From the NCBI GenBank assembly GCA_964389385.1, contig CAYMFP010000081.1, positions 1 to 10,864 of the forward strand: a DNA stretch of 10,864 bases, given 5' to 3'. Shown piece by piece: positions 1 through 10,864 of this stretch; positions within the stretch are counted from its first letter, which is position 1, and each line of letters starts with the position of its first letter. Origin of the DNA: an uncultured Phycisphaeraceae bacterium (GTDB lineage Bacteria > Planctomycetota > Phycisphaerae > Phycisphaerales > UBA1924). The notes below the pieces were generated by a model. That model did not search any database and was not told the DNA's origin. It was given only the letters and a program-made list of their open reading frames with translations. The position numbers were made by a program, and so were the translations under genes.

Positions 1-134
1 CCCCGGCGGCGGACAGTAGCGCGAGTCCGCTCAGCGCCCGGGCTCGTCCGGCGCGGCCGCGGGGGCCGCGGCGGGGGCGGCGGGGGCGCGGGGGCGCCCG
101 GGGGGGGGGGGGGCGCGGGGGGGGGCGGAGCTTC
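1..134. repeat. G-rich low-complexity leader (repeated GGGGGC/GGCGG units, a G14 run near 97-110, a G9 run near 116-124); probable contig-end artefact or G-quadruplex-prone spacer
   Basis: Direct reading finds homopolymer G runs of 14 and 9 and no start codon in the downstream ORF frame. A mirrored C-rich tract sits at the other end of the window. Confidence 0.5.
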
Positions 135-2795
135 GTGCTCGATCCGCGGGCCGACGCGTTCCTGGGGCTCGGCGTGTCGGACCCGGAGGATCTGGCCGGG
201 AAGGTGCTCGGGAAGTACACGCTGCTGCGGGTCATCGGGCGGGGCGGGATGGGGACGGTGTACCTGGCCCGCCAGCGCGATCTGGACCGCGAGGTCGCGG
301 TGAAGGTCTTCCCGCCGCACGCGCTGGGGTTCGACGCGAGGCTGCGGTTCGAGCGCGAGGTCCAGGCGCTGAGCCGGGTGAACCACCCGGGCGTGGCCCG
401 CATCTACGACGCGGGGCTGCACGCGGACGCGCACGCCCCGGTGCTGGCGCCCATCCCCTACTTCGCGATGGAGCTGGTCGACGGGCTGCCGATCACGGAG
501 CACGTCGCCCGGCACCGGCTCGGGCTGCGCGAGCGGCTGGCGCTGATGGCCGAGACGGCCGACGCGGTGCACGCCGCGCACCAGCGGGCGATCGTGCACC
601 GCGACCTGAAGCCCGGCAACGTGCTCGTGACGCCGCCGGAGGAGGCGCGCCCGTGGGGGGCGCCGAAGGTGCTGGACTTCGGGATCGCCAGGATGGTGCG
701 GGAGGACGCCCGCGAGCGGACGCTCTGGACCGGCGGGATCCTGCTCGGCACGCTCGGGTACATGGCGCCCGAGCAGGCCCGGGGCGAGGCCGACGAGATC
801 GACGTCCGGACGGACGTGTACGCCCTCGGCGTGATCCTGCACGAGGTGGTGACGGGGCGTCCGCTGCACCGGCTGGAGGGGATGCCGCTGACGGAGGCCC
901 TGCGGCGGGTGAGCGATCCTCGCCCGCCCGCGGTGTGCGTCCCTGACGACTTCACCGGCGGGGATCTGCGGAACGTGCTCTCCGTCGCGCTGGCGCCGGA
1001 GAAGGAGCGTCGTTACCCGTCGGCGGCCGCGCTGGCGGAGGATCTGCGGCGGCTGCTTCGGAGCGACCCGGTCTTCGCCCGCCCGGCGACGACGGTGTAC
1101 CGGGTCCGGAAGTTCGTGCGGCGCCACAGGGGGGGAGTCGCGGCGGCGTCGCTGGCCGCGGCCGGGCTGCTCGGGGGGACGGTGCTCGCGAGCGTCGGGC
1201 TCGTGCGCGAGCGTGCGGCGCGGGGGCGGGCCGAGTCGGCGCGGGCGGAGGCGCAGGAGCACGCGGCGATCGCTCAGCGGCAGCGCCGGCGGGCCGAGGC
1301 CTCGCGGGACTTCCTGACGCACATCGTCTGGTCCGCCGAGCCGGGGCAGATCGGGCGCGACGTCACCGTCGTGGACGCGGTGCGGTCGGCCCTCCCGGCG
1401 ATCGGGGCCTACGCCGGCGGGGATCCGGCGGCGGAGAGCGACCTGAGGCTCACCGTCGCGCAGACCCTCCGCAACCTCGGGCATCCGGAGGAGGCGGACG
1501 CGGAGTTCGCCGAGGCCGTGCGGCTGGCGGAGGAGGCCTTCGGCGTCGGCAGCCCGCAGGCGGTCGGTCCCGCCCTCGAGCGGGCGGACATGCTGACGGG
1601 CCTGGGACGCCTGGACGATGGCCGGGAGATCATCGAGCGGCAGGCGCGGTTCGTGGAGGCGATGCCGCCCGGGCACGAACGCGATCAGTTGGAGGTCGCG
1701 CTGGCGGTCAGCCGCGCGAACCTGCTGGGCGAGGAGGGGGCGTACGCGGAGAGCGCGCAGGCGTTCCGGGAGGTGCTGGCGCGGGTCAGGGCGGAGCCGA
1801 CGCTGCTCGACGCGTACAACCTGGACACGGTCCGCTCGCACTTCGGGCTCTCGCTGCTGTACGCGGGCGAGCTGCGCGAGGCGGAGGCCGTGCAGCGGGC
1901 CCTGGCGGCCGACCGCGCCGCGCGCCTCGGCCCCCTGCACCCGCGGACGCTGATCGTGCGGGAACATCTGGCCGGAACGCTGGTGGACCTCGGGGAGTTC
2001 GACGAGGCGCGGGCGATCCTGGAGGAGGTCATCGCCGAGGGCTCGCGGGCGTGGGGGCCGACGCATCCCTACACGCTCTCGGCGCGGCACGGGCTCGCGT
2101 CGCTCGAGGGCACGCGCGGGAACTACGCGGCCGCCGCGGAACTCGCCGGAGCGATCCTGAAGGACGCCGAGGGCGTGCTGCCGCCGGACGAGCCGTTCCT
2201 GCTGTTCGCGGCGAACACCCGCGCGGTGTCCCTGGCGGCCGAGAAGCGGTGGGAGGAGGCCCTGCCGGTGCTCCGGGACATGGTGCGGCGGGGGACGGCG
2301 ATCTACGGGGCCGAGCACCCGTACACGCTCTCGTTCCGGGCGAGCCTCGCCAACGGGCTGGGGGAGATGGGGGACGCCCGGGCGGCGATGGAGGAGCTGG
2401 AGGGGATCCTGGAGGTGCAGCGCCGGGTGCTCGGCGACGACGCGGAGCCGGTGCTGATCACGAGGAACAACCTCGCGATGTTCCACCTGGAGCTGGGCGA
2501 GCCGGAGCGGGCGGTGCCGGTGCTGGAGGAGGTGCTCGCGGCGGCGACGGCCGGGGAGCGGCGGGCGATCGGCGCGATCTTCCGGCGGAACCTGGGCCGC
2601 GCGCTCGCCGGAGCCCGGCGGTTCGAGGAGGCGGAGGGCCAGCTGCTGCTCGCGCACGACGAGGCCCGCGAGTGGCTGGACGAGAGCCAGGTCCGGCGCA
2701 CGGCGGAGTTCCTCGCCGAGCTGTACGCGGCGTGGGGCCGGGCGGAGGCCGAGGCCGTGTGGCGCGGCGAGGCCGCGGGCGCCGCGGCGGAGTAG
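135..2795 (+). CDS. Hanks-type Ser/Thr protein kinase with a single TM helix and a C-terminal TPR-like repeat sensor domain (886 aa, GTG start)
   Basis: Kinase motifs are all present: Gly-rich loop IGRGGMGTVYLA, VAVKV lysine, catalytic loop HRDLKPGNVLV, DFGIA and GTLGYMAPE. These are followed by the RKFVRRHR juxtamembrane motif, a hydrophobic helix GVAAASLAAAGLLGGTVLASVGLV, and about 500 aa of Ala/Leu/Glu/Arg-rich helical repeats. Codon third positions are nearly all G or C in this frame. Confidence 0.88.
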   Translation: MLDPRADAFLGLGVSDPEDLAGKVLGKYTLLRVIGRGGMGTVYLARQRDLDREVAVKVFPPHALGFDARLRFEREVQALSRVNHPGVARIYDAGLHADAHAPVLAPIPYFAMELVDGLPITEHVARHRLGLRERLALMAETADAVHAAHQRAIVHRDLKPGNVLVTPPEEARPWGAPKVLDFGIARMVREDARERTLWTGGILLGTLGYMAPEQARGEADEIDVRTDVYALGVILHEVVTGRPLHRLEGMPLTEALRRVSDPRPPAVCVPDDFTGGDLRNVLSVALAPEKERRYPSAAALAEDLRRLLRSDPVFARPATTVYRVRKFVRRHRGGVAAASLAAAGLLGGTVLASVGLVRERAARGRAESARAEAQEHAAIAQRQRRRAEASRDFLTHIVWSAEPGQIGRDVTVVDAVRSALPAIGAYAGGDPAAESDLRLTVAQTLRNLGHPEEADAEFAEAVRLAEEAFGVGSPQAVGPALERADMLTGLGRLDDGREIIERQARFVEAMPPGHERDQLEVALAVSRANLLGEEGAYAESAQAFREVLARVRAEPTLLDAYNLDTVRSHFGLSLLYAGELREAEAVQRALAADRAARLGPLHPRTLIVREHLAGTLVDLGEFDEARAILEEVIAEGSRAWGPTHPYTLSARHGLASLEGTRGNYAAAAELAGAILKDAEGVLPPDEPFLLFAANTRAVSLAAEKRWEEALPVLRDMVRRGTAIYGAEHPYTLSFRASLANGLGEMGDARAAMEELEGILEVQRRVLGDDAEPVLITRNNLAMFHLELGEPERAVPVLEEVLAAATAGERRAIGAIFRRNLGRALAGARRFEEAEGQLLLAHDEAREWLDESQVRRTAEFLAELYAAWGRAEAEAVWRGEAAGAAAE
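216..1049 (+). other. Protein kinase catalytic domain of the STK (residues about 28-305)
   Basis: Subdomain I through XI motifs can be read in order, and all catalytic residues (K, HRD, DFG, APE) are intact, so the kinase is predicted active. Confidence 0.8.
1137..1205 (+). other. Predicted transmembrane helix of the STK (residues about 335-357)
   Basis: A 23-aa hydrophobic stretch lies immediately after the basic RKFVRRHRGG motif. This gives the kinase-in, repeat-domain-out topology typical of membrane STKs. Confidence 0.7.
1317..2795 (+). other. TPR-like / tetratricopeptide-type helical repeat region of the STK (extracytoplasmic sensor or scaffold domain)
   Basis: Small and large hydrophobic residues recur with roughly 34-40 aa periodicity (for example LGLSLLYAGELREAEAVQRALAADRAARLGPLHPRTL, AAELAGAILKDAEG, LANGLGEMGDARAAMEELEGILEVQRRVLG). 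There are no enzymatic motifs. Confidence 0.6.
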
Positions 2796-2808
2796 GTGGC
2801 GGGCCGCC

Positions 2809-5800
2809 TCAGGACGCCGGGCCGGGCGGGCCGTCGGCGGGCGCGCGGGCGTCGAGCGTCGGGGCGGTGCGGCCGCTCGGCGGGGCGAGCCGCCCGGCGA
2901 CGCCCGAGGCGAGATCGGTCAGCGTCTGGTTCATCATCGCGAGCTGGGCGAGGAGCTTGGCGGCGGAGTCCTCGTCGCCCCCGAGGGCGGTGTGGCGCTG
3001 GAAGACGCGCTTGACCTCCTCCCACCGGGCGCGATCGGCGTCGGTGGCGCAGCCGAGCATGACCTTGAGCTTGAGGAGGTTCGCCTCGGCGTTCTTGGTG
3101 AGGGTCTGGGCGTCCTGCTCGTAGGCGGAGAGGATGAGCGACTCGAGTTCGGCGTCGTTCATGACGGGGCTGACGCGGGAGGCGAGGCGGTTCATGTTGC
3201 GGTAGGAGCCCTGGAGCAGGAACGGGGGCTCGGTGCGGTAGCGGTCGTCCTGCGCGGCCGAGCGGATGTACTGCTGGTTGACCCGCAGCACGACGTCGCG
3301 CACGCGGAGGAGCTTGCGCATGACCGAGATCATGTCGGCGATCTCGGCCGGGGCGTAGCCGCCCTTCAGGTCGGCCGTCGCGACGCCCGCCGGGGAGGGC
3401 GCGTCGTCGGCCGCGAGGCGAGCGATCGTGAGCACGTCCTCGCGGCCGTGGCGGGCGAGGGGGGCCAGGGCGGGGTTGCTGGTGACGGCGTTCTCGATGT
3501 AGGAGAGTTCGAAGGCCTCGCGCCGGTCGCCGATGATGTCGCCGAGGTTGTAGGTGTCGGCACGGTTGGCGAGCATGTCGGGGATGCGGAAGCGTTCGCC
3601 CGACTCGGTGTAGGGGTTGCCGGCCATGACGACGGCGACGCGGCGCCCGCGGAAGTCGTAGGTGCGCGGGCGCCCGCGGTAGACGCCCTCGATCTTGCGC
3701 TGGGCGTCGCAGAGGCTGATGAACTTCTGGAGGAACTCGGGGCTGACGTGCTGGATGTCGTCGACGTAGATGAGGATGTTGTCGCCCATCTCGAAGGCGA
3801 GGTTGAGCTTCTCCAGCTCCTCGCGCGCCGCGGCGTTGGGGGCGCTGGCGGGGTCGAGCGCGGTGACCTCGTGCCCGAGGGCGGGGCCGTTGATCTTCAT
3901 GAAGACGACGCCGAGCCGTGCCGCGACGTACTCCATCAGCGTCGTCTTGCCGTACCCGGGTGGGCTGATGAGCAGGAGCAGGCCGGAACGCTCGGCGCGG
4001 TTGTCGCCGGCGGCGCCCATCTGCTTCGCGAGGTTCGCGCCGATCAGGGGGAGGAAGACCTCGTCGACCAGGCGGTTGCGGACGAACCCCGGCGGGACGC
4101 GCGGGGTGAACTCCCCGATCCGCAGGCGGCGGCGGGCATCGTCGACCAGCCGCTGCTTGAGCCTCGTGAAGGCCTCGAAGCGCGGGACGCGGCGCTCGCG
4201 GAAGTCCGTGAGGCGGCGGTCGAACTCCGCGTAGTCGAGCGCGAGAACGCCGCCGTTGATCCGCGGGTGGTCGCCGACGAGCCCGGCGATCTCGCGGCGC
4301 GTGCTCTCGGGCACGATGCGGGCGCGGTCGAAGCCGGGGAGGCAGACGAGCCGCGCGGCCTCGTCGAGGAAGTCGGCCGCGGCGGGGCCGGCCGCGCCCA
4401 GCTCGCCGTTCGCGCTGGCGACGAACGCGTGCAGCCAGTCGCGGGCGAGGAGGTGGCGGGCGACGGGGTCGGCGGCGACGGCCTCGAGCGCGTGCTGGAG
4501 CCGGAGGGCGCTGTTCGTCTCGCGCAGGCGGGCGTGCAGGGCCTCGGCGAGCGCGGCGGCCTCCGGCGAAACGGCGAACGAATGGGCAGCGGGTGCGGCG
4601 CTCGGGCTCGCGTGGGGGTCGGCCGGGCCCGCGGCCGGGCCGATGAGTTCGGCGAAGAGGTAGGCCCCGGCGGCGGGGGCGTCGGCGGGGTCGAAGCCGT
4701 GCGCCGCGTGCGACTCGGCGAAGCCGGCGCACAGCGCCGTCAGCTCCGCGATGCACGCCTCCTGCCGCTCGGCGGACGGGAACGCGTGGCGGATCTGCCC
4801 GAAGCCGGCCAGGCGCGCGGCGAGCAGGGGCTTGCGCGGGTGCTCCCAGGCTTCCCACGCGAGCAGGGCGAGGGCGCGGGCGCGCGAGGGGTAGCGGAGC
4901 AGCCCGATGCGGGCCCGCAGCTCGAGCAGCGTCCGGAGGATCAGCGCCGCGTCGTGGTCGTGCACGCCCTTGGTGTACGACTCGGCGTACCGCGGGGCCA
5001 TGAAACGCTGCACGGTCCGGAGGAGGTCGTCCTCGCCGGCTCCGACGGCGCCCTCCGCGGCCCCGGCGGGCTCGGGGATCTCCCCGGCCTCGATCGCGCG
5101 CTGCACCAGGTGGGCGAGGTACTCGCCGCGGTAGACCTCCGGGCTCTCGCTGACGACGTGCTGGTCCCAGCAGTCGCGGGCCTCGTCCAGGCCCGGGTCG
5201 TCGAGCGGCTCGAAGAAGGCGGTGCCGGAGAGGTGGAGCTGGATGCGCCCCTCGCGCGTCGTCGTCGTGAGGTCGACCGCCTGCGTGTTGATGGCGAGCG
5301 GGAACCGCCCGAAGCGGGCGACGGGGCGGCCGTCGAGCGGCTCGTCGCGGTCGCGCAGGCGGCGGTCGGCCTCCTCCCGCACGGAGTCGAGGCGCCCGGC
5401 GATCTCGTCGGCCCGAACGCCCTCGCCGAGTTCGCGCAGCTCCGCGAGCGTCGAGCGGAGCTTCTCGACCATCGGGTCGCCGGCGAAGTACGCGTGGATC
5501 GCCTCGGCGGAGCCGAGCCGCTCGGCCCGGGTGCGCACGCCCTTGAGCACGCGCTCGGCGGCCGCGGCGAGGTTCTCGCCCCGCCTCGCCCGGGCCTCGG
5601 CGAGGCGCAGGCGCCGGTCCTCGAAGGCGGAGTGGATCTCCTCGCGCTTCTCGGCGAGGCGTTCGGCGAACTCGTCGAACTCCGCGAACCGGGCCTCGAC
5701 CTCCTCGAGCTGGAGCATCACGCGCGTGAGCTGCTCCTCGGTCTTCTCCGGCGTGTCGGAGAGTTCGAGCGCCCCGGCGACCGTCTGGTCGAGCAGGCGC

Positions 5801-7929
5801 AGGCGGCTGGCGAACTCGGCGGCGCCCTCCGTGCGCGAGAGGTCGCGCAGGCGGCCCTGCAGCCGCGAACGCGCGGCGTTCAGCTCGGCGAAGACGCCCG
5901 AGACCGCGTCGACGATCGCGGTGCGTTGCGTGGCGTCCTCGATCTTCAGGCCGCCGACGACGTCGATCAGCATCTCCAGCTCGCCGGCGGACTTCTGGAT
6001 CGCCTCGTCGAGCCGCTTGGCGTCGGCGGCGCGGTCGATGCCGTCCACGCGCGCGGCGTGCTCGCGGGCGGCCGCGCGGTACGGATCGAGCGCGTCGTCG
6101 CGCAGCAGGAAGCCGACGGCCCGCCGCGAGACGCCGTCGGCCTGCTCGACGACGCGGGCCTCGAGCCGGTCGATCAGGCCGGGGTCGGCGTAGCGCAGCT
6201 CGCGCAGGGCGATGATCTCGCCGCGGAGCGTCCGGAGCCCGGCGAGGGCGGCGACGAAGTCGCCGATGCCGTCGTACATCCGGGCGTGGTTCTCGGCGAC
6301 GAGGTCGGCGGTCCTCCGCTCCGCCGCCTCGGTCTGCTCGAGCGTGGCGCGGCGGATGGCGCGGACCTTCTCGAACTCGCCCACGGCCGCCTCGGCCGTC
6401 GCGCGGATCGCCCCGAGCGTCTCGGCGAGGCCCCCGGCCGCCGCGTCCTTGAGCCAGTAGTACGAGTCGAGCACCTCCTGCGCCTCGCGGGCGATGTCGA
6501 TGTAGAGGTCGGCGTACGGGTCGCGGCGCTCGACGAGGTTCAGGATCGCGTGGCACTCGGCCATGCCGCGGACGATGTCGCGGTTGCCGACCTTGGCCAG
6601 GTACGAGTCCCGCGCGTGCACCTGCTCGCGCCCCGGCGCCGCGTACGGCGTGCGCCAGAGCTGCAGGGCGTGGTGCCGCTGCGGCTCGTCGCCAGCCCGG
6701 AAGAGCACCATCCGCCCGTCCTCGAGCAGGCTGAACCCGTGGCAGACGACCGGCGTCCCGGCGTCCTGCGCGATCACGTTGTACCCGACGAGGGCGTACT
6801 CGCCCGTGCCGCGGTGGTAGAAGACGAAGAGGTGGTCCTCCCCGTTCGGGGCCGGCACGCGGCGCTCGAAGACGACGCCCTCGGGGACGTTGGGGAACGC
6901 CTGCAGCCGCCCGCTCTCCAGGTAGAACCCGCCGGCGAAGAGCACGCCGTGGTCGTCGGGCAGGAGCAGGGCCGCGTGGGCGAGCCCGTCGGCCCGGCGC
7001 ACCTCGCGCAGCTTGCGGTTGTAGATGAAGTACCGGTGCCGCCGCTCCTGGTAGGGGCGGATCCGCAGCAGGATGAGGCTGCCCACCTGCGCGTACGCGA
7101 TCTCCGCGTCGTCGAGCCCCTGGTCCGGGTTCTCGACGGGCTCGGCGTAGAGCCCGCGCCCGGTCGACGTGTTGTCCTCGGCCTTGATCGTGAGGTCGCC
7201 GCCGATGCAGTCGACGAAGAGCGTGTCGAGGACCGCCACGTGCGGGTGGGCGCCGGGGCGGTGGTCGTCGCGCGTCGTCTGCTTCCAGTCGACCTCGTGC
7301 GGCGCGGGGTAGCGGAGCTCGTGGTCGGAGCGGTTGTCGACGTAGGCCAGGCGCGGCGCGCCGTCCGCGCCCGCCTCCATCCGCCACTTGAAGGCCTTGA
7401 AGTCGTCCGCGTCGCGCCCGATGCGGAACTTCATGTAGAGGAACGCGCCGCGGACGAAGAACTTCGCGAACGTCGCGCCCTTGTAGAAGCGGTACAGGTC
7501 GCGGAACTCCTTGCGGAACTGCTCGTCGCCGAGCAGCTCCGAGAGCGGCAGCTCCGCGTAGCCGGCGGAGCCGTCCCCGGCGTCCTCCATCCGGTAGAGC
7601 GCGAAGACGTCCTCGGGCGCGATCTCCTGCTTGAGCCCGAACGTGACGTTGTACCCGAGCAGCACGCGGCCGCCGATCGAGACGAGATCCCGCGCCACGC
7701 AGTTGTGGGCCGTGGTGACGCGCTGCGTGTCGAGCAGCTCCGTCTCCACCGTGCCGAAGACGCGCTTGCGCTCCTCGTTCAGCGCCGCGAGCCGGCGGCG
7801 CAGCTCCGCCCCCTGCGCCGCGAGGCGCTGCCGGATGATCTCGTACGCCCCCTGCTCGAGGCGCTCGCCGGCCCCCTCCCCCGCGGCGGCCCCGCCGGAC
7901 GCCGGATTCTGCACGCTCTGCTCGGCCAT
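2809..7929 (-). CDS. Giant (1706 aa) multidomain protein: beta-rich N-terminal domain, long coiled coil, helical linker, and a C-terminal MoxR/AAA_5-like AAA+ ATPase. Uncharacterised flotillin-associated ATPase.
   Basis: ATG at 7927-7929 is preceded by GGTGAGCAGGA. Composition is Asp/Glu/Leu/Ala-rich rather than shadow-frame-like along the whole length. Walker A LLLISPPGYGKTTLMEY, Walker B NILIYVDDIQH, sensor-1 VVMAGNPY and an Arg in RIPDMLANRAD are present. No hydrophobic TM segment is seen. The gene lies 98 bp downstream of the flotillin gene on the same strand. Confidence 0.82.
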   Translation of the reverse strand: MAEQSVQNPASGGAAAGEGAGERLEQGAYEIIRQRLAAQGAELRRRLAALNEERKRVFGTVETELLDTQRVTTAHNCVARDLVSIGGRVLLGYNVTFGLKQEIAPEDVFALYRMEDAGDGSAGYAELPLSELLGDEQFRKEFRDLYRFYKGATFAKFFVRGAFLYMKFRIGRDADDFKAFKWRMEAGADGAPRLAYVDNRSDHELRYPAPHEVDWKQTTRDDHRPGAHPHVAVLDTLFVDCIGGDLTIKAEDNTSTGRGLYAEPVENPDQGLDDAEIAYAQVGSLILLRIRPYQERRHRYFIYNRKLREVRRADGLAHAALLLPDDHGVLFAGGFYLESGRLQAFPNVPEGVVFERRVPAPNGEDHLFVFYHRGTGEYALVGYNVIAQDAGTPVVCHGFSLLEDGRMVLFRAGDEPQRHHALQLWRTPYAAPGREQVHARDSYLAKVGNRDIVRGMAECHAILNLVERRDPYADLYIDIAREAQEVLDSYYWLKDAAAGGLAETLGAIRATAEAAVGEFEKVRAIRRATLEQTEAAERRTADLVAENHARMYDGIGDFVAALAGLRTLRGEIIALRELRYADPGLIDRLEARVVEQADGVSRRAVGFLLRDDALDPYRAAAREHAARVDGIDRAADAKRLDEAIQKSAGELEMLIDVVGGLKIEDATQRTAIVDAVSGVFAELNAARSRLQGRLRDLSRTEGAAEFASRLRLLDQTVAGALELSDTPEKTEEQLTRVMLQLEEVEARFAEFDEFAERLAEKREEIHSAFEDRRLRLAEARARRGENLAAAAERVLKGVRTRAERLGSAEAIHAYFAGDPMVEKLRSTLAELRELGEGVRADEIAGRLDSVREEADRRLRDRDEPLDGRPVARFGRFPLAINTQAVDLTTTTREGRIQLHLSGTAFFEPLDDPGLDEARDCWDQHVVSESPEVYRGEYLAHLVQRAIEAGEIPEPAGAAEGAVGAGEDDLLRTVQRFMAPRYAESYTKGVHDHDAALILRTLLELRARIGLLRYPSRARALALLAWEAWEHPRKPLLAARLAGFGQIRHAFPSAERQEACIAELTALCAGFAESHAAHGFDPADAPAAGAYLFAELIGPAAGPADPHASPSAAPAAHSFAVSPEAAALAEALHARLRETNSALRLQHALEAVAADPVARHLLARDWLHAFVASANGELGAAGPAAADFLDEAARLVCLPGFDRARIVPESTRREIAGLVGDHPRINGGVLALDYAEFDRRLTDFRERRVPRFEAFTRLKQRLVDDARRRLRIGEFTPRVPPGFVRNRLVDEVFLPLIGANLAKQMGAAGDNRAERSGLLLLISPPGYGKTTLMEYVAARLGVVFMKINGPALGHEVTALDPASAPNAAAREELEKLNLAFEMGDNILIYVDDIQHVSPEFLQKFISLCDAQRKIEGVYRGRPRTYDFRGRRVAVVMAGNPYTESGERFRIPDMLANRADTYNLGDIIGDRREAFELSYIENAVTSNPALAPLARHGREDVLTIARLAADDAPSPAGVATADLKGGYAPAEIADMISVMRKLLRVRDVVLRVNQQYIRSAAQDDRYRTEPPFLLQGSYRNMNRLASRVSPVMNDAELESLILSAYEQDAQTLTKNAEANLLKLKVMLGCATDADRARWEEVKRVFQRHTALGGDEDSAAKLLAQLAMMNQTLTDLASGVAGRLAPPSGRTAPTLDARAPADGPPGPAS
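3490..4062 (-). other. AAA+ ATPase module (residues about 1290-1480). Walker A maps to about 3940-3966 and Walker B to about 3748-3777.
   Basis: The reverse complement of 3937-3966 reads ATCAGCCCACCCGGGTACGGCAAGACGACG, which translates to ISPPGYGKTT. The reverse complement of 3748-3777 translates to ILIYVDDIQH. The downstream VVMAGNPYTESGERFRIPDMLANRAD resembles the MoxR ATQNP...LDRF region. Confidence 0.7.
5320..6492 (-). other. Extended coiled-coil / helical region of the giant ATPase (residues about 480-870)
   Basis: About 400 aa are dominated by Glu, Arg, Ala and Leu with heptad-like spacing (for example EQLTRVMLQLEEVEARFAEFDEFAERLAEKREEIHSAFEDRRLRLAEARARRGENL). There are no Pro or Gly clusters. 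Confidence 0.55.
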
Positions 7930-7978
7930 TCCTGCTCACCGCTCCCGATTGCCCCGCCCCGGCGCATCCCGATGCAAG

Positions 7979-8010
7979 CCGGCCGGCGCCGCGGACGCGG
8001 CGCCGGCCGG
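7979..8010 (-). promoter_or_regulatory. Perfect 15-bp inverted repeat (CCGGCCGGCGCCGCG ga CGCGGCGCCGGCCGG) forming a GC-only stem-loop in the flotillin-ATPase intergenic region. Candidate intra-operon attenuator, RNA processing site or operator.
   Basis: By direct reading the two arms are exact reverse complements, separated by 2 nt. The repeat sits 17 nt after the flotillin stop and about 49 nt before the ATPase start. No U-tract follows on the transcribed strand. Confidence 0.45.
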
Positions 8011-8027
8011 ACACGAGTTCGACGCGC

Positions 8028-10112
8028 TCAGTTCGCCAGGCCGTCCTTGGAGGCGCCGTTGGCGCCCCCGCCCAGCCCGCCGGCCGCCGCGGCGAGGCGC
8101 GGGGCGAGCCCCAGCTGCTCGAGCGTCCGGTTCCCGAGGCCCGCGGCCTCGATCGCCCCCATCAGCCGCCGCAGCTCCGCCCGCTCGCCGTCGTCGCGGG
8201 AGGCCGCGAGCAGCTTCGCCGCCAGCGCCGCCACGCCGAGGTTCTTCAGGTCCTCGCTCCCGACGCCGAACTTGTCGACGAACGCCTGGAGCTGCGCCCT
8301 GAAGTGCTCCCCGTCGCCGGTGAAGAACGTGTCCCGCACCGTGCGGATGGTGGGGGAGTTCTCGACCGTGCGCTCCACGCTCTTGCCGAGCGTGATCGAG
8401 TTGACGATCTGCTCGAAGAAGCGGTTCTCGCCGCCGACGATGTCGATCCGCGCGCTCTTGAGCGCCTCGCCCAGCACCCGCGCCTGCTGCTCGGCGATGT
8501 CCTTCTGCACGTCGATCTGCGCCAGCTCGACCTGCAGGTCGCGGTTCAGGCGGAGCTTGAACTCCTCGTGGTCGCGCCCGACCCCGTCGAGCACCTTCAT
8601 CGCCTCGGCCTTCGCGCGGGTCGCCCCGGCGTCCGCCTCGCCCTTCTGGCGCAGGATCTCCGCCTCGGCCCGGCCCTTCTGCGCGATGACCTCGGCCTCC
8701 GACTCCCCGTACTTGCGGATCGAGCCGGCCTTCGCCTCCATCACCTGCGCCTCGGCCAGGCCCTCGGCCGCCGCGTCCGCGGTCTTCGCCTCGGCCAGCT
8801 TCATCGTCGCCAGCGCCTCCTTCTCCGCGGCGGCGCGCCTCGCCTCCGCGTCGATCAGCACCTGGTCCGCGTGGAACTTCGCCGCCGACTTCGCCGCCTC
8901 GGCCGCCTTGATCTCCTTGACCATCGCCTCCTCGGCCTCGGCCTCCGCGGCCTTGACCTTCACGCCCTTGGCCCGCTCCGCGGCCGCGAACTCCCGCGTG
9001 TCGTTGATCCGCTCCTCCTCCTCCACGACCGCCCGCTGCACCGCGACGCGCTCGCGGATCACGTCCTGGATCTTCTTCTGCTCGATCTCGACCGCCTTGA
9101 GCTTCTCGATCCGCGCCAGCTCCACCACCCGCTCGCGCTCGGTCTGCTCCAGCTCCTGCTCGCGCTTGACGCGCTCGGCCTCGACCGCGTCGGCCCGCTG
9201 CTTGGCCCGCTCGGCGATGAGCACCGCCCGGAGCTTGTTCTGCTCCTGGATCCCGAGCAGCTCCTCCGCCTCGAGCCGGGCCCGCTCGCTCTTGACCTTC
9301 TCCTCCTCGCGGACCTTGTCCGCCTCCGCCTGCTCGCGGAACTGCGCGATCTCGATCTCGCGCTTCTGCCGCGCCTCGACCTCGGCCTGCTGGCGTTCCA
9401 GCTCCAGGATCGCCTCCCGCGCCTCGACGTCCTGCTTCTTGATCGTCTTCTCGCGCTCGCGGTTGATGCTGTTCGCCAGGATCAGCTGCGTCGCCGTCCG
9501 CTCCGTGATCTTCTTGATGCCCTCGGCGTCGAGGATGTTGTCCGGGTCCAGCGCCTCGACCGGCGTCTGCTCCAGGTAGTCGATCGCCGCGTCGTCGAGG
9601 ATGTACCCGTTCAGGTCCTGCCCGATGTGCCCGAGGATCCGCTCCTTGAACTGCTCGCGCTCGGAGTACAGGTCCGTGAATTCGAACTGCTTGCCGACCG
9701 TCTTCAACGCCTCGCTGAACTTCGCGTCGAACAGGTCGCGCAGCTTGTCCTCGTCGCTCGCCCGGGCGCAGCCGATCGTCTGCGCGACCTTCAGCACGTC
9801 CTCCGCCGCGTTGTTCACCCGCACGAAGAACGCCACCTTGATGTCCGCCCGAACGTTGTCCGCGCAGATCAGGCCCTCGCTCCCGTGCCGGTAGATCTCC
9901 ACCCGCTTGAGCGAGATGTCCATCGTCTCCTTGCGGTGCACCACGGGGAGGATCAGCAGCCCCGTGAAGCTCACCCGCACGCCCCCGATGCCCGTGCGCA
10001 CCAGCGCCGTGCCCTGCTGCACCTTCTGGTAGCACTGCACCAGCATCGCCACGCCCGCGACGAGCACGAGCGCCAGCAACAGCCCGCCGGCGACGATGAT
10101 CCCGATCTCCAT
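8028..10112 (-). CDS. Flotillin (SPFH/band-7 family, YqiK/FloT-like), 694 aa, with an N-terminal membrane anchor, SPFH domain, long EA-rich coiled coil and a Gly/Ala-rich C-terminal tail
   Basis: The N-terminus MEIGIIVAGGLLLALVLVAGVAMLV is a membrane hairpin or helix. The SPFH-like core follows (VRTGIGGVRVSFTGLLILPVVHRKETMDISLKRVEI...ADIKVAFFVRV...). Then come roughly 330 aa of EA/ER/EK-repeat coiled coil (AEAEAEEAMVKEIKAAEAAKSAAK and others). A purine-rich RBS (GGGAAGGGAAGAG) lies just upstream of the ATG. The stop TGA is at 8028-8030. Confidence 0.9.
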   Translation of the reverse strand: MEIGIIVAGGLLLALVLVAGVAMLVQCYQKVQQGTALVRTGIGGVRVSFTGLLILPVVHRKETMDISLKRVEIYRHGSEGLICADNVRADIKVAFFVRVNNAAEDVLKVAQTIGCARASDEDKLRDLFDAKFSEALKTVGKQFEFTDLYSEREQFKERILGHIGQDLNGYILDDAAIDYLEQTPVEALDPDNILDAEGIKKITERTATQLILANSINREREKTIKKQDVEAREAILELERQQAEVEARQKREIEIAQFREQAEADKVREEEKVKSERARLEAEELLGIQEQNKLRAVLIAERAKQRADAVEAERVKREQELEQTERERVVELARIEKLKAVEIEQKKIQDVIRERVAVQRAVVEEEERINDTREFAAAERAKGVKVKAAEAEAEEAMVKEIKAAEAAKSAAKFHADQVLIDAEARRAAAEKEALATMKLAEAKTADAAAEGLAEAQVMEAKAGSIRKYGESEAEVIAQKGRAEAEILRQKGEADAGATRAKAEAMKVLDGVGRDHEEFKLRLNRDLQVELAQIDVQKDIAEQQARVLGEALKSARIDIVGGENRFFEQIVNSITLGKSVERTVENSPTIRTVRDTFFTGDGEHFRAQLQAFVDKFGVGSEDLKNLGVAALAAKLLAASRDDGERAELRRLMGAIEAAGLGNRTLEQLGLAPRLAAAAGGLGGGANGASKDGLAN

Positions 10113-10115
10113 CGG

Positions 10116-10130
10116 CTCTTCCCTTCCCGC
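10116..10130 (-). promoter_or_regulatory. Shine-Dalgarno-like purine-rich tract (GGGAAGGGAAGAG) upstream of the flotillin start
   Basis: The reverse complement of the region just upstream of the ATG reads CCCGGCGGGAAGGGAAGAGCCGATG. Spacing from the ATG is about 4-10 nt. Confidence 0.5.
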
Positions 10131-10166
10131 CGGGCGGCGGCTCGCCGCGCCGGTCTCTCGACGGCC

Positions 10167-10778
10167 TCAGGCCGCCGCTTCCTGTTCCCGTTCACGAACC
10201 CCGTCCCCGCCCGCACCTTGGCCCGGAGCCGCGTCCGCCCCGCCCTCCACCTCCGCCGCGTACGCCCGCAGCGCCCGGTCCGCCCGCGCGGCCCGCAGCG
10301 CCCGCTCCCGCACCGCGGCCGGATCCCGCGCCTCCTCCGGGGCGATCCGCTCCACCAGGTACACCCCGCCCGGCTCGCGACCGAACACGACCGCCGTGTC
10401 CCCCCGCCCCAGCGCCGGACGCCCCGCCCGCACCCGCGCCTCGATCACCAGCGGCGCCCCGCCCGTCGCCACCTCCGCACGGCCGAAGCCCTCGTCCAGG
10501 CGGGTCGTCGCCACCGTGCACGGCCGCCCCAGGATCGCCCGCCGCCAGTCCCGGTCATCCCCCTCGGCGCTGCGGTACAACGCCCGCACCGGCAGCGTGA
10601 CGACCTTCGCCACCGCCCCGCCGACCACCGCCGCCGGGACCGCCGCCGCCGCCACCTCCCAGCCCGAGAGCCCCAGCCGCAGCGTCAGCAGCAGGCTCAG
10701 CGTCCAGACGACGATCAGCACCACGCTCAGCACGACCGACGCGGGCACCTCGCCCAGGTTCAGCAGCCGCCCGAGCAC
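10167..10778 (-). CDS. NfeD-like (YuaF/YqiJ-type) small membrane protein: two N-terminal TM helices plus a C-terminal OB-fold-like beta-barrel. Start uncertain, because the frame stays open into the terminal low-complexity tract.
   Basis: Two hydrophobic helices are VVLSVVLIVVWTLSLLLTLRLGL and AAAAVPAAVVGGAVAKVVTLPV. The C-terminal segment GRPCTVATTRLDEGFGRAEVATGGAPLVIEARVRAGRPALGRGDTAVVFGREPGGVYLVERI fits the NfeD beta-barrel pattern of spaced Gly and Val residues with a final GxxLxVE. The gene is immediately upstream of the flotillin gene on the same strand, with a 54-bp gap, which is the conserved nfeD-flotillin order. Confidence 0.65.
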   Translation of the reverse strand: MLGRLLNLGEVPASVVLSVVLIVVWTLSLLLTLRLGLSGWEVAAAAVPAAVVGGAVAKVVTLPVRALYRSAEGDDRDWRRAILGRPCTVATTRLDEGFGRAEVATGGAPLVIEARVRAGRPALGRGDTAVVFGREPGGVYLVERIAPEEARDPAAVRERALRAARADRALRAYAAEVEGGADAAPGQGAGGDGVREREQEAAA

Positions 10779-10794
10779 GAGACGCAGGTGCGCC

Positions 10795-10864
10795 CCGCCC
10801 CCCCCCCCCCCCCGGGGCCCCGCCCCCCCCCGGCCCCGCCCCCCGCCCCCCCCCCCCGCCCCCG
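10795..10864. repeat. C-rich homopolymer/low-complexity tract at the window end (a C17-18 run, then CCCCG/CCCCGG units); mirror of the G-rich tract at the start
   Basis: Direct reading finds C-runs of 17, 9 and 11 and no coding-like structure. On the minus strand this is poly-G. Confidence 0.5.

Follow-up and report, generated by a model that had tools for sequence, protein, structure and literature searches.

We analyzed a 10,864-nucleotide (nt) stretch of DNA from an uncultured Phycisphaeraceae bacterium (contig CAYMFP010000081.1 of assembly GCA_964389385.1, positions 1 to 10,864 of the forward strand; hereafter, the window), which encodes a giant ATPase on its minus strand. Judging from gene context, we lean toward the view that this protein is a cytoplasmic, single-module AAA+ ATPase, encoded by the third gene of a YqiJ/NfeD-like–flotillin–ATPase operon, that remodels membrane scaffolds. 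Relatives of the protein are mostly annotated as DNA repair enzymes; its most likely function, given the flotillin membrane scaffold encoded in the same operon, is in membrane maintenance and not in DNA repair.

Gene order around the giant ATPase

The operon visible in the window runs from a gene for a YqiJ/NfeD-like small membrane protein (10778..10167) through a flotillin-family gene (10112..8028) to the ATPase gene (7929..2809), all on the minus strand, with the flotillin gene lying 98 nt upstream of the ATPase gene. The first two products each carry an N-terminal hydrophobic segment; the ATPase has no transmembrane (TM) segment, its maximum Kyte-Doolittle 19-residue mean being 1.27. The latter point had already been made in a preliminary description of this DNA, which had passed over the operon context.

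Conservation of this order was assessed in 80 species loci related to the window locus. In 70 of them, the gene immediately preceding that of the ATPase on its strand encoded a flotillin, and a YqiJ-like gene lay upstream of the flotillin gene in 59. Six of the remaining 10 loci had insufficient upstream sequence, and four truly lacked an adjacent flotillin gene. We did not observe any conserved downstream gene in the 80 loci. In 12 to 13 loci from Bacteroidota, the operon extended further upstream with genes for PspA (PF04012, E = 6e-41), CesT_Tir_1 (E = 3e-58), and a divergent helix-turn-helix regulator. The Pseudomonas fluorescens SBW25 plasmid pQBR103 carries a homolog (WP_011922896.1) that is colinear with the window protein and has the same domain order and an upstream SPFH gene; unlike the window operon, the pQBR103 operon stands behind PspA and yjf-type polyamine genes, the order being PspA, yjf-type polyamine genes, a small gene, the SPFH gene, and then the "DNA repair ATPase." The CesT/Tir-PspA dyad was seen only in the Bacteroidota loci and on pQBR103. 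In Deinococcus, the order is a small gene, a 652-amino-acid (aa) gene, and the ATPase gene.

The same operon, in which CesT/Tir-PspA is accompanied by three further genes including one for a YqiJ/YuaF-type protein with three TM segments, was described by Ravi et al. (2024, mSystems, PMC11237479), who also reported that "abbreviated" operons without PspA are widely distributed. These authors proposed roles in sub-membrane dynamics and membrane-complex assembly and raised the ATPase-scaffold idea in general terms; their supplementary table gives the Dokdonia donghaensis operon (around PspA ANH61663.1) as containing "Betapropeller+Coiled-coil+AAA-ATPase." The window shares with the operon of Ravi et al. 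the three-gene order and the protein architecture, and our Bacteroidota loci reproduce the full version. It differs in that only the abbreviated form can be seen in it and in that the window protein is at most 55% identical to anything searched and lacks a C-terminal tail module. The window protein is thus a divergent, tail-less member of a computationally described family and adds little to published knowledge of it.

Proposed role at the membrane

In the scheme that we propose, the AAA+ module would assemble the ATPase into a ring, an assembly of flotillin and YqiJ would recruit it to the cytoplasmic face of the membrane, and a predicted beta-propeller and helical rod in its N-terminal half would form an arm that binds a partner or substrate. 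ATP hydrolysis might then drive the assembly, remodeling, dismantling, or recycling of flotillin- and/or PspA-based scaffolds, or of clients held there, during envelope stress. The analogy is with the scaffold-plus-AAA+ pairs HflK/C-FtsH and ESCRT-III–Vps4. HflK/C-FtsH is an SPFH membrane scaffold coupled to an AAA+ machine, FtsH being a membrane-anchored classic-clade AAA+ protein fused to a protease. The genetic coupling of an SPFH scaffold to an AAA+ protein makes this a plausible comparison; the window ATPase, in contrast, has neither a TM segment nor a protease domain, possesses a RuvB/MoxR/MCM-like core, and is homologous to FtsH only in the AAA+ core. Vps4 acts on ESCRT-III, a superfamily that includes PspA and Snf7, and the window family resembles it in being an AAA+ ATPase that is operon-linked to a PspA-family polymer in some lineages, such that ATP-driven polymer turnover is possible. 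Unlike Vps4, however, the window family has no MIT domain and belongs to another AAA+ clade, and most loci have no PspA gene, while nearly all have a flotillin gene.

Several observations weigh against a role in scaffold remodeling. The ATPase gene stands without an adjacent flotillin gene in 4 of ~74 informative loci (L025, L057, L059, and L061). Only 86 nt of the window precede the small gene; the operon is therefore visible only in its abbreviated three-gene form, and a PspA gene, if there is one, would lie beyond the window. Literature searches returned no experimental study of any family member, and physical contact of the ATPase with flotillin, YqiJ, or PspA is something that we infer from gene context. 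The region after strand beta2 of the AAA+ core (GPALGHEVTALDP) is without the aromatic-hydrophobic pore-loop motif of protein-threading AAA+ unfoldases, which weakens a simple unfoldase picture, and a Walker B element with DD in place of DE may mean that catalysis is atypical in rate and mechanism. At the four loci without an adjacent flotillin gene, the upstream genes were unrelated (TPR, DUF1549/DUF1553/DUF1501, YdjC, DUF2147, Uma2, and TonB_C).

A bolder version, which we offer only tentatively, is that the ATPase is the dedicated assembly/disassembly motor of bacterial flotillin scaffolds (and of PspA scaffolds where PspA is present), docking via its propeller and rod on a cytoplasmic flotillin/YqiJ cage. 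Bacterial flotillins and PspA have been studied intensively as membrane organizers and repairers; we know of no partner that would spend energy on assembling or recycling the scaffolds that flotillins form. If correct, the family would be a bacterial counterpart of Vps4 acting on ESCRT-III or of p97 acting on erlin complexes and would give a first enzymatic handle on the turnover of bacterial "raft" scaffolds. The family is found in at least 10 phyla, almost always right after a flotillin gene, and is systematically mislabeled as a DNA repair enzyme; because it is conserved and flotillin-linked, it is an obvious candidate for such an energy-consuming partner. We suggest that its annotation should read flotillin-operon AAA+ ATPase with beta-propeller. 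Tractable carriers include P. fluorescens SBW25 with pQBR103, Proteus mirabilis, Vibrio, Hymenobacter, Chryseobacterium, and Streptomyces.

The ATPase is encoded by a single gene

Long spurious open reading frames (ORFs) in several frames are expected at high GC content, and the GC content of the window is 75%. Overlapping long ORFs of 1903 and 1706 aa on the minus strand and of 2195 aa on the plus strand were indeed present. The ORF at 2809..7929 (minus), which translates into 1706 aa plus a stop codon, displayed in a codon-position GC plot a third-position GC content (GC3) of 0.95 to 1.00 and a second-position GC content of ~0.45, unbroken from ~3000 to 7800. Its product is colinear end to end with 120 homologs of 1660 to 1958 aa and begins with MAEQ, the family consensus start being MAE. 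We conclude that this ORF is one real gene. The preliminary description had allowed that the ORF might prove to be two genes split by a sequencing frameshift; a frameshift or gene fusion was ruled out because the GC3 phase is unbroken and the homologs are colinear over the whole length. ORFs 2303..8014 (minus) and 2992..9579 (plus) were rejected as real genes, as their frames were mismatched to the GC3 pattern. The same GC-by-codon-position test picked out the real neighbors, namely 135..2795 (plus, 886 aa), 8028..10112 (minus, 694 aa), and 10167..10778 (minus, 203 aa).

The ATPase belongs to a widespread family

The giant ATPase matched Pfam DUF3686 (PF12458) over residues 42-491 and the complete model (positions 1-448 of 448) with an E value of 4.3e-175 and 583 bits against a cut-off of 25, and it matched DUF7902 (PF25472) with 89.6 bits against a cut-off of 26. 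It is an ordinary member of a widespread DUF3686 + DUF7902 + AAA family. A word-indexed search retrieved 1738 relatives with the same Pfam architecture, most of which are called "DNA repair ATPase" by NCBI; such DUF3686/DUF7902 proteins are colinear with the window protein over their full length at ~40 to 55% identity. An exhaustive HMMER scan with residues 1-500 yielded 723 clusters at 50% identity from at least 10 phyla, in which full-length members measured 1590 to 2036 aa and the DUF3686-containing domain was always N-terminal. The preliminary description had considered a single AAA+ module placed so far toward the C terminus to be unusual. That judgment has to be abandoned, as an AAA+ module following ~1280 residues is the norm in this family.

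A scan of one genome per GTDB species showed that at least 432 species carry the family, with carriers including Planctomycetota, Verrucomicrobiota, Bacteroidota (Hymenobacter, Chryseobacterium, Tenacibaculum, and Pontibacter), Desulfobacterota, Clostridia, Kiritimatiellota, and Omnitrophota. Carriers in a plasmid collection were Pseudomonas (pQBR103), Proteus, Vibrio, Photobacterium, Halomonas, Streptomyces, Nonomuraea, and Deinococcus, and a phage genome collection contained no family member. In the databases searched, the closest relatives of the window protein came from Phycisphaerae/Planctomycetota and were at most 55% identical over the full length. We also noted a 1711-aa homolog (P0085; eukprot g33011.t1) with 49% identity and the full architecture in a eukaryotic proteome set, which could be a bacterial contamination or a case of horizontal transfer.

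Domain architecture

Two AlphaFold2 (AF2) models built with 99 homologs, one of residues 1-880 (predicted local distance difference test [pLDDT] score of 88.2) and one of residues 861-1706 (pLDDT of 87.3), were combined with Pfam and Foldseek matches to map the domains (Table 1), so that the domain map now rests on high-confidence models. The map agrees with the order anticipated in the preliminary description, namely a beta domain, a helical region, a single C-terminal AAA+ module, and a C-terminal extension. Residues 870-1270, which that description had passed over, contain a small beta domain, a helical domain, and a beta-hairpin with a long helix. Sequence searches against solved structures, conducted with both the single sequence and a family profile, gave no match for the propeller, the rod, or the C-terminal domain; matches were limited to the P-loop/beta2 region (p97, Rix7, and RuvB).

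TABLE 1 Positions of the operon genes in the window and of the domains and motifs of the giant ATPase (residue numbers refer to the ATPase)
Feature	Position (nt)	Strand	Basis
YqiJ/NfeD-like small membrane protein gene, 203 aa, first gene of visible operon	10167..10778	-	Hydrophobic N-terminus; synteny
Flotillin-family gene, 694 aa	8028..10112	-	N-terminal TM segment, SPFH domain, Glu/Ala/Lys-rich helical region; homologs named flotillin/YqiK
Giant ATPase gene, 1706 aa + stop	2809..7929	-	GC3 phasing, translation, 120 colinear homologs, consensus start
N-terminal long helix, residues 19-58	7756..7875	-	AF2 pLDDT >90 from residue 30; conserved in family
All-beta domain, residues 64-426, predicted beta-propeller	6652..7740	-	Pfam PF12458, AF2, Foldseek
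Echo motif 1 GGRVLLGYNVTFGL, residues 86-99	7633..7674	-	Strand 88-95; family form G-rflfGYNV
Echo motif 2 HLFVFYHRGTGEYALVGYNVIAQD, residues 366-389	6763..6834	-	Strands 365-371 and 378-384; family form G-YvLL-YNl
Helical rod, residues 443-862, 12 predicted helices of 14-58 residues	5344..6603	-	AF2
Pfam DUF7902 match, residues 612-695, inside helical rod	5845..6096	-	Pfam
Small beta domain, residues 870-908	5206..5322	-	AF2 second model
All-helical middle domain, residues 934-1196	4342..5130	-	AF2; without Pfam family; least conserved part of protein
Beta-hairpin and long helix, residues 1211-1269, leading into ATPase	4123..4299	-	AF2
AAA+ alpha/beta core, residues 1286-1460	3550..4074	-	Pfam AAA/AAA_5, AF2, Foldseek, motif conservation
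AAA+ helical lid, residues 1462-1507	3409..3546	-	AF2
Conserved C-terminal helical domain, residues 1527-1680	2890..3351	-	AF2; carries near-invariant EPPFLLQGSYRNMNR (1567-1581)
Disordered Pro/Ala-rich tail, residues 1681-1706	2812..2889	-	pLDDT <50

The N-terminal all-beta domain, which lies within the DUF3686 match, contains ~27 to 29 strands in the AF2 model (~27 over residues 64-426, at a pLDDT of 88), in keeping with the beta-rich N terminus expected earlier. All significant Foldseek matches covering the domain were six- or seven-bladed propellers, among them WD40 proteins, CyRPA, PON1, and prolyl-oligopeptidase (E values of 1e-5 to 1e-3), suggesting that the domain is probably a beta-propeller of six to seven blades and bearing out an initial guess of a propeller-like fold. 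That guess had been prompted by an internal echo between two short strings, both of which are present where they had been reported (residues 86 and 366) and are conserved in the family. In the model, each forms a strand right after a hairpin turn, in the predicted first and second-to-last blades. As a sequence repeat, the echo did not reach significance: self-BLAST of the single sequence and half-versus-half blastp found only an 11-residue echo (E = 0.91), profile-versus-profile alignment of the two halves with hhalign, using the family profile, found 10 columns (P = 0.088), and the best pair of blade-sized profile segments had a P value of 0.0038 (hhalign probability of 8.7%) that is uncorrected for ~19 non-trivial comparisons. 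The echo may faintly reflect the repetition of blades, but it is predicted structure rather than a sequence repeat that establishes the propeller.

The region that follows had been described as an SMC-like coiled coil at residues ~480-870. It is helical and rich in Ala, Arg, Glu, and Leu, but the likeness to SMC proteins ends there: none of its 12 predicted helices exceeds 58 residues, and the heptad signal was weak in the two longest, as judged by a crude home-made heptad score rather than a validated coiled-coil predictor. The modeled helices resemble bundles or spectrin repeats, and the model indicates a chain of short helical bundles rather than an SMC-like coiled coil. SMC/Rad50 ATPases, in contrast, have a long, continuous antiparallel coiled coil with a hinge, and an ABC head whose two halves flank it; Pfam gave no ABC or SMC match for the giant ATPase, and the long Ala/Arg/Glu-rich helical region is the only resemblance.

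About 200 residues follow the AAA+ module, not the full ~220 that the preliminary description had assigned to a C-terminal extension, as part of that stretch is the AAA+ lid and the rest is a conserved helical domain. The nearest homologs continue beyond a Pro-rich linker into a conserved ~75-aa module (VVNKxPxT..QFxLMxGWLxPL). The window ATPase ends inside the Pro-rich linker, 13 nt from the end of a convergent kinase gene, and the module is coded in no frame of the window. Of 76 species loci, 23 have the module and 53 do not, so that its presence varies among family members.

The AAA+ module

An AAA+ fold at residues ~1290-1480 with a Walker A sequence SPPGYGKT, as put forward in the preliminary description, was confirmed. 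AF2 predicted an AAA+ core and lid at residues 1286-1507 (pLDDT of 87), and Foldseek matched the core to RuvB, MCM, NorQ/CbbQ, and ClpA with a probability of 1.00. The Walker A sequence SPPGYGKTT occupies residues 1322-1330 (nt 3940-3966), with SPPGYGKT at 1322-1329, and is invariant in 76 species. The Walker B-like sequence ILIYVDDIQH lies at residues 1385-1394 (nt 3748-3777), and its DDIQH (1390-1394) is also invariant. In the same 76 species, which represent at least six phyla, the sequences that were invariant or nearly so comprised, in addition, INGP after strand beta2, AGNPYTE, PDMLANRAD, and LLQGSYRNMNR. On the basis of position, N1438 in AGNPYTE is a candidate sensor 1 and the invariant R1456 in PDMLANRAD a candidate arginine finger, and we suspect that the EPPFLLQGSYRNMNR motif of the C-terminal helical domain contributes a sensor-2-type arginine. 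A beta-hairpin (residues 1412-1425, strands 1412-1417 and 1420-1425) is predicted between the Walker B and sensor-1 strands. With a hairpin predicted ahead of the sensor-1 strand, the module would belong to the pre-sensor-1-hairpin superclade, as do RuvB, Clp/Lon, MCM, and MoxR.

Assignment within this superclade is less clear. Pfam scores at the core were 28.5 to 31.1 bits for AAA, 26.5 to 29.7 for AAA_22, 25.6 to 28.3 for AAA_5, and 23 to 24 for RuvB_N, with AAA and AAA_5 above their cut-offs and AAA_22 above or near its own; by these scores, no single Pfam AAA+ family stands out for the core. The preliminary description had called the module MoxR/AAA_5-like, which agrees with the AAA_5 match and the predicted pre-sensor-1 hairpin, but AAA_5 is one of several equally weak assignments. 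Given these scores and the lack of a visible helix-2 insert hairpin, the label is unproven; in the AF2 model, DSSP assigned coil and short helices to residues 1348-1365, between beta2 and alpha2, where the insert hairpin would be expected.

Alternative functions

One alternative is that the protein is a MoxR-type (AAA_5) chaperone that matures a partner or inserts cofactors into it, as RavA, NorQ, and CbbQ do. AAA_5 has the most extensive match to the core (model positions 2-125 of 139), NorQ and CbbQ gave the highest target-normalized TM-scores (0.5 to 0.6), the beta-hairpin is predicted before sensor 1, and DDIQH resembles the DEINR-type Walker B region of AAA_5. We nevertheless regard such a function as unlikely, given that Pfam AAA, AAA_22, and RuvB_N score equally well or better, that RuvB and MCM have better Foldseek E values, and that the helix-2 insert is not evident. 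Furthermore, MoxR ATPases are proteins of ~250 to 500 aa with VWA-domain partners; the window protein has 1706 aa, with ~1280 residues of extra domains including the predicted propeller and rod, and no VWA-domain protein, the usual MoxR companion, was present in the window or among the conserved neighbors of the 80 loci. A MoxR assignment concerns the AAA+ clade and is compatible with a flotillin-linked function.

The pairing of large multidomain ATPases with membrane proteins is common in defense systems, and the three genes could in principle serve in conflict, against phages or otherwise, with the large NTPase sensing infection and the membrane component killing or protecting the cell. Copies of the family on megaplasmids (pQBR103 and plasmids of Deinococcus, Streptomyces, and Hymenobacter) are consistent with this idea, as is the convergent neighbor of the ATPase gene, which encodes a Ser/Thr kinase matching the PADLOC PD-T4-6 and mad6 kinase models. 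Those matches, however, are to the generic kinase domain, and the kinase is not a conserved neighbor of the ATPase gene (2 of the 80 loci, both distant). PADLOC gave no meaningful match for the operon itself: the ATPase drew no more than two hits, one to IetA (29 P-loop residues, E = 0.003) and one to ZorA (E = 0.0095), and the flotillin and the small protein matched nothing. The lack of copies in the phage collection, the presence of envelope-stress genes such as PspA among the conserved partners, and a broad, housekeeping-like distribution with one uniform architecture further argue against a defense function, which we consider improbable.

More improbable still is a true function in DNA repair, with the ATPase working on DNA in the manner of RuvB, MCM, or SMC/RecN: NCBI and UniProt records and the Pfam DUF3686 description do say "DNA repair ATPase" or "ATPase involved in DNA repair," RuvB and MCM are among the top Foldseek matches, and the P-loop region has weak matches to Pfam RuvB_N and NCBIfam RuvB, but the RuvB/MCM likeness is limited to the generic AAA+ core (22 bits for NCBIfam RuvB against a cut-off of 282), the Pfam scan found no DNA-binding, nuclease, or helicase-specific domain, there is neither an SMC-type coiled coil nor an ABC head, the conserved neighbors are membrane proteins (flotillin, YqiJ, and PspA) and not repair genes, and the name appears to be propagated annotation for which literature searches produced no supporting paper. 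Those searches, which covered DUF3686, PF12458, and flotillin in combination with either the "DNA repair ATPase" name or AAA+ cryo-electron microscopy in bacteria, returned nothing, and a paper on SPFH proteins of P. aeruginosa (PMC13086221) proved to have no bearing on the family.

Neighboring genes and minor features of the locus

The flotillin-family protein of the window, taken alone, fell below the Pfam Band_7 threshold (E = 8.9). A homolog that is 61 to 63% identical to it (P0125) passed Band_7 at 36 bits, and a 38-sequence flotillin profile found no relative in the PDB at an E value of 0.01 or better. We conclude that current models and structures give poor coverage of this flotillin subfamily. 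When five homologs of the 203-aa small protein were compared with Pfam, L018 scored above the YqiJ_N threshold, and L001 gave only weak, sub-threshold matches to YqiJ_N and the NfeD C-terminal domain. The window YqiJ-like protein lacks a long Asp-rich loop that several homologs have between the first TM segments (for example, DLFDFDLDFDTDVNLDADLDLDVDAD in L001:7102-7779) and has an Ala/Gly/Glu-rich C-terminal tail instead.

The product of the convergent gene at 135..2795 (plus) is a Ser/Thr protein kinase of 886 aa, in which a large tetratricopeptide repeat (TPR) region accompanies a single TM-like segment (~residues 333-358). The stop codon of this gene lies 13 nt from that of the ATPase gene, and the matches of the kinase to the PADLOC PD-T4-6 and mad6 kinase models and to NCBIfam FxSxx_TPR are below the respective cut-offs.

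Scans of the window with Rfam and for promoters and terminators gave nothing useful. In the spacer between the flotillin stop codon (8028-8030) and the ATPase start (7929), we observed a hairpin at 7979-8010 (minus) whose perfect 14-bp GC-only stem closes a 4-nt loop and lacks a U tract. Folded as a whole, the spacer is ordinary for a sequence of 75% GC (z = -1.05). Perfect stems of at least 9 bp were present in the same spacer at 8 of 37 related loci from several phyla, one of which may be an artefact of a run of N. The hairpin might act within the operon as an attenuator or processing site and so set the ratio of flotillin to ATPase.

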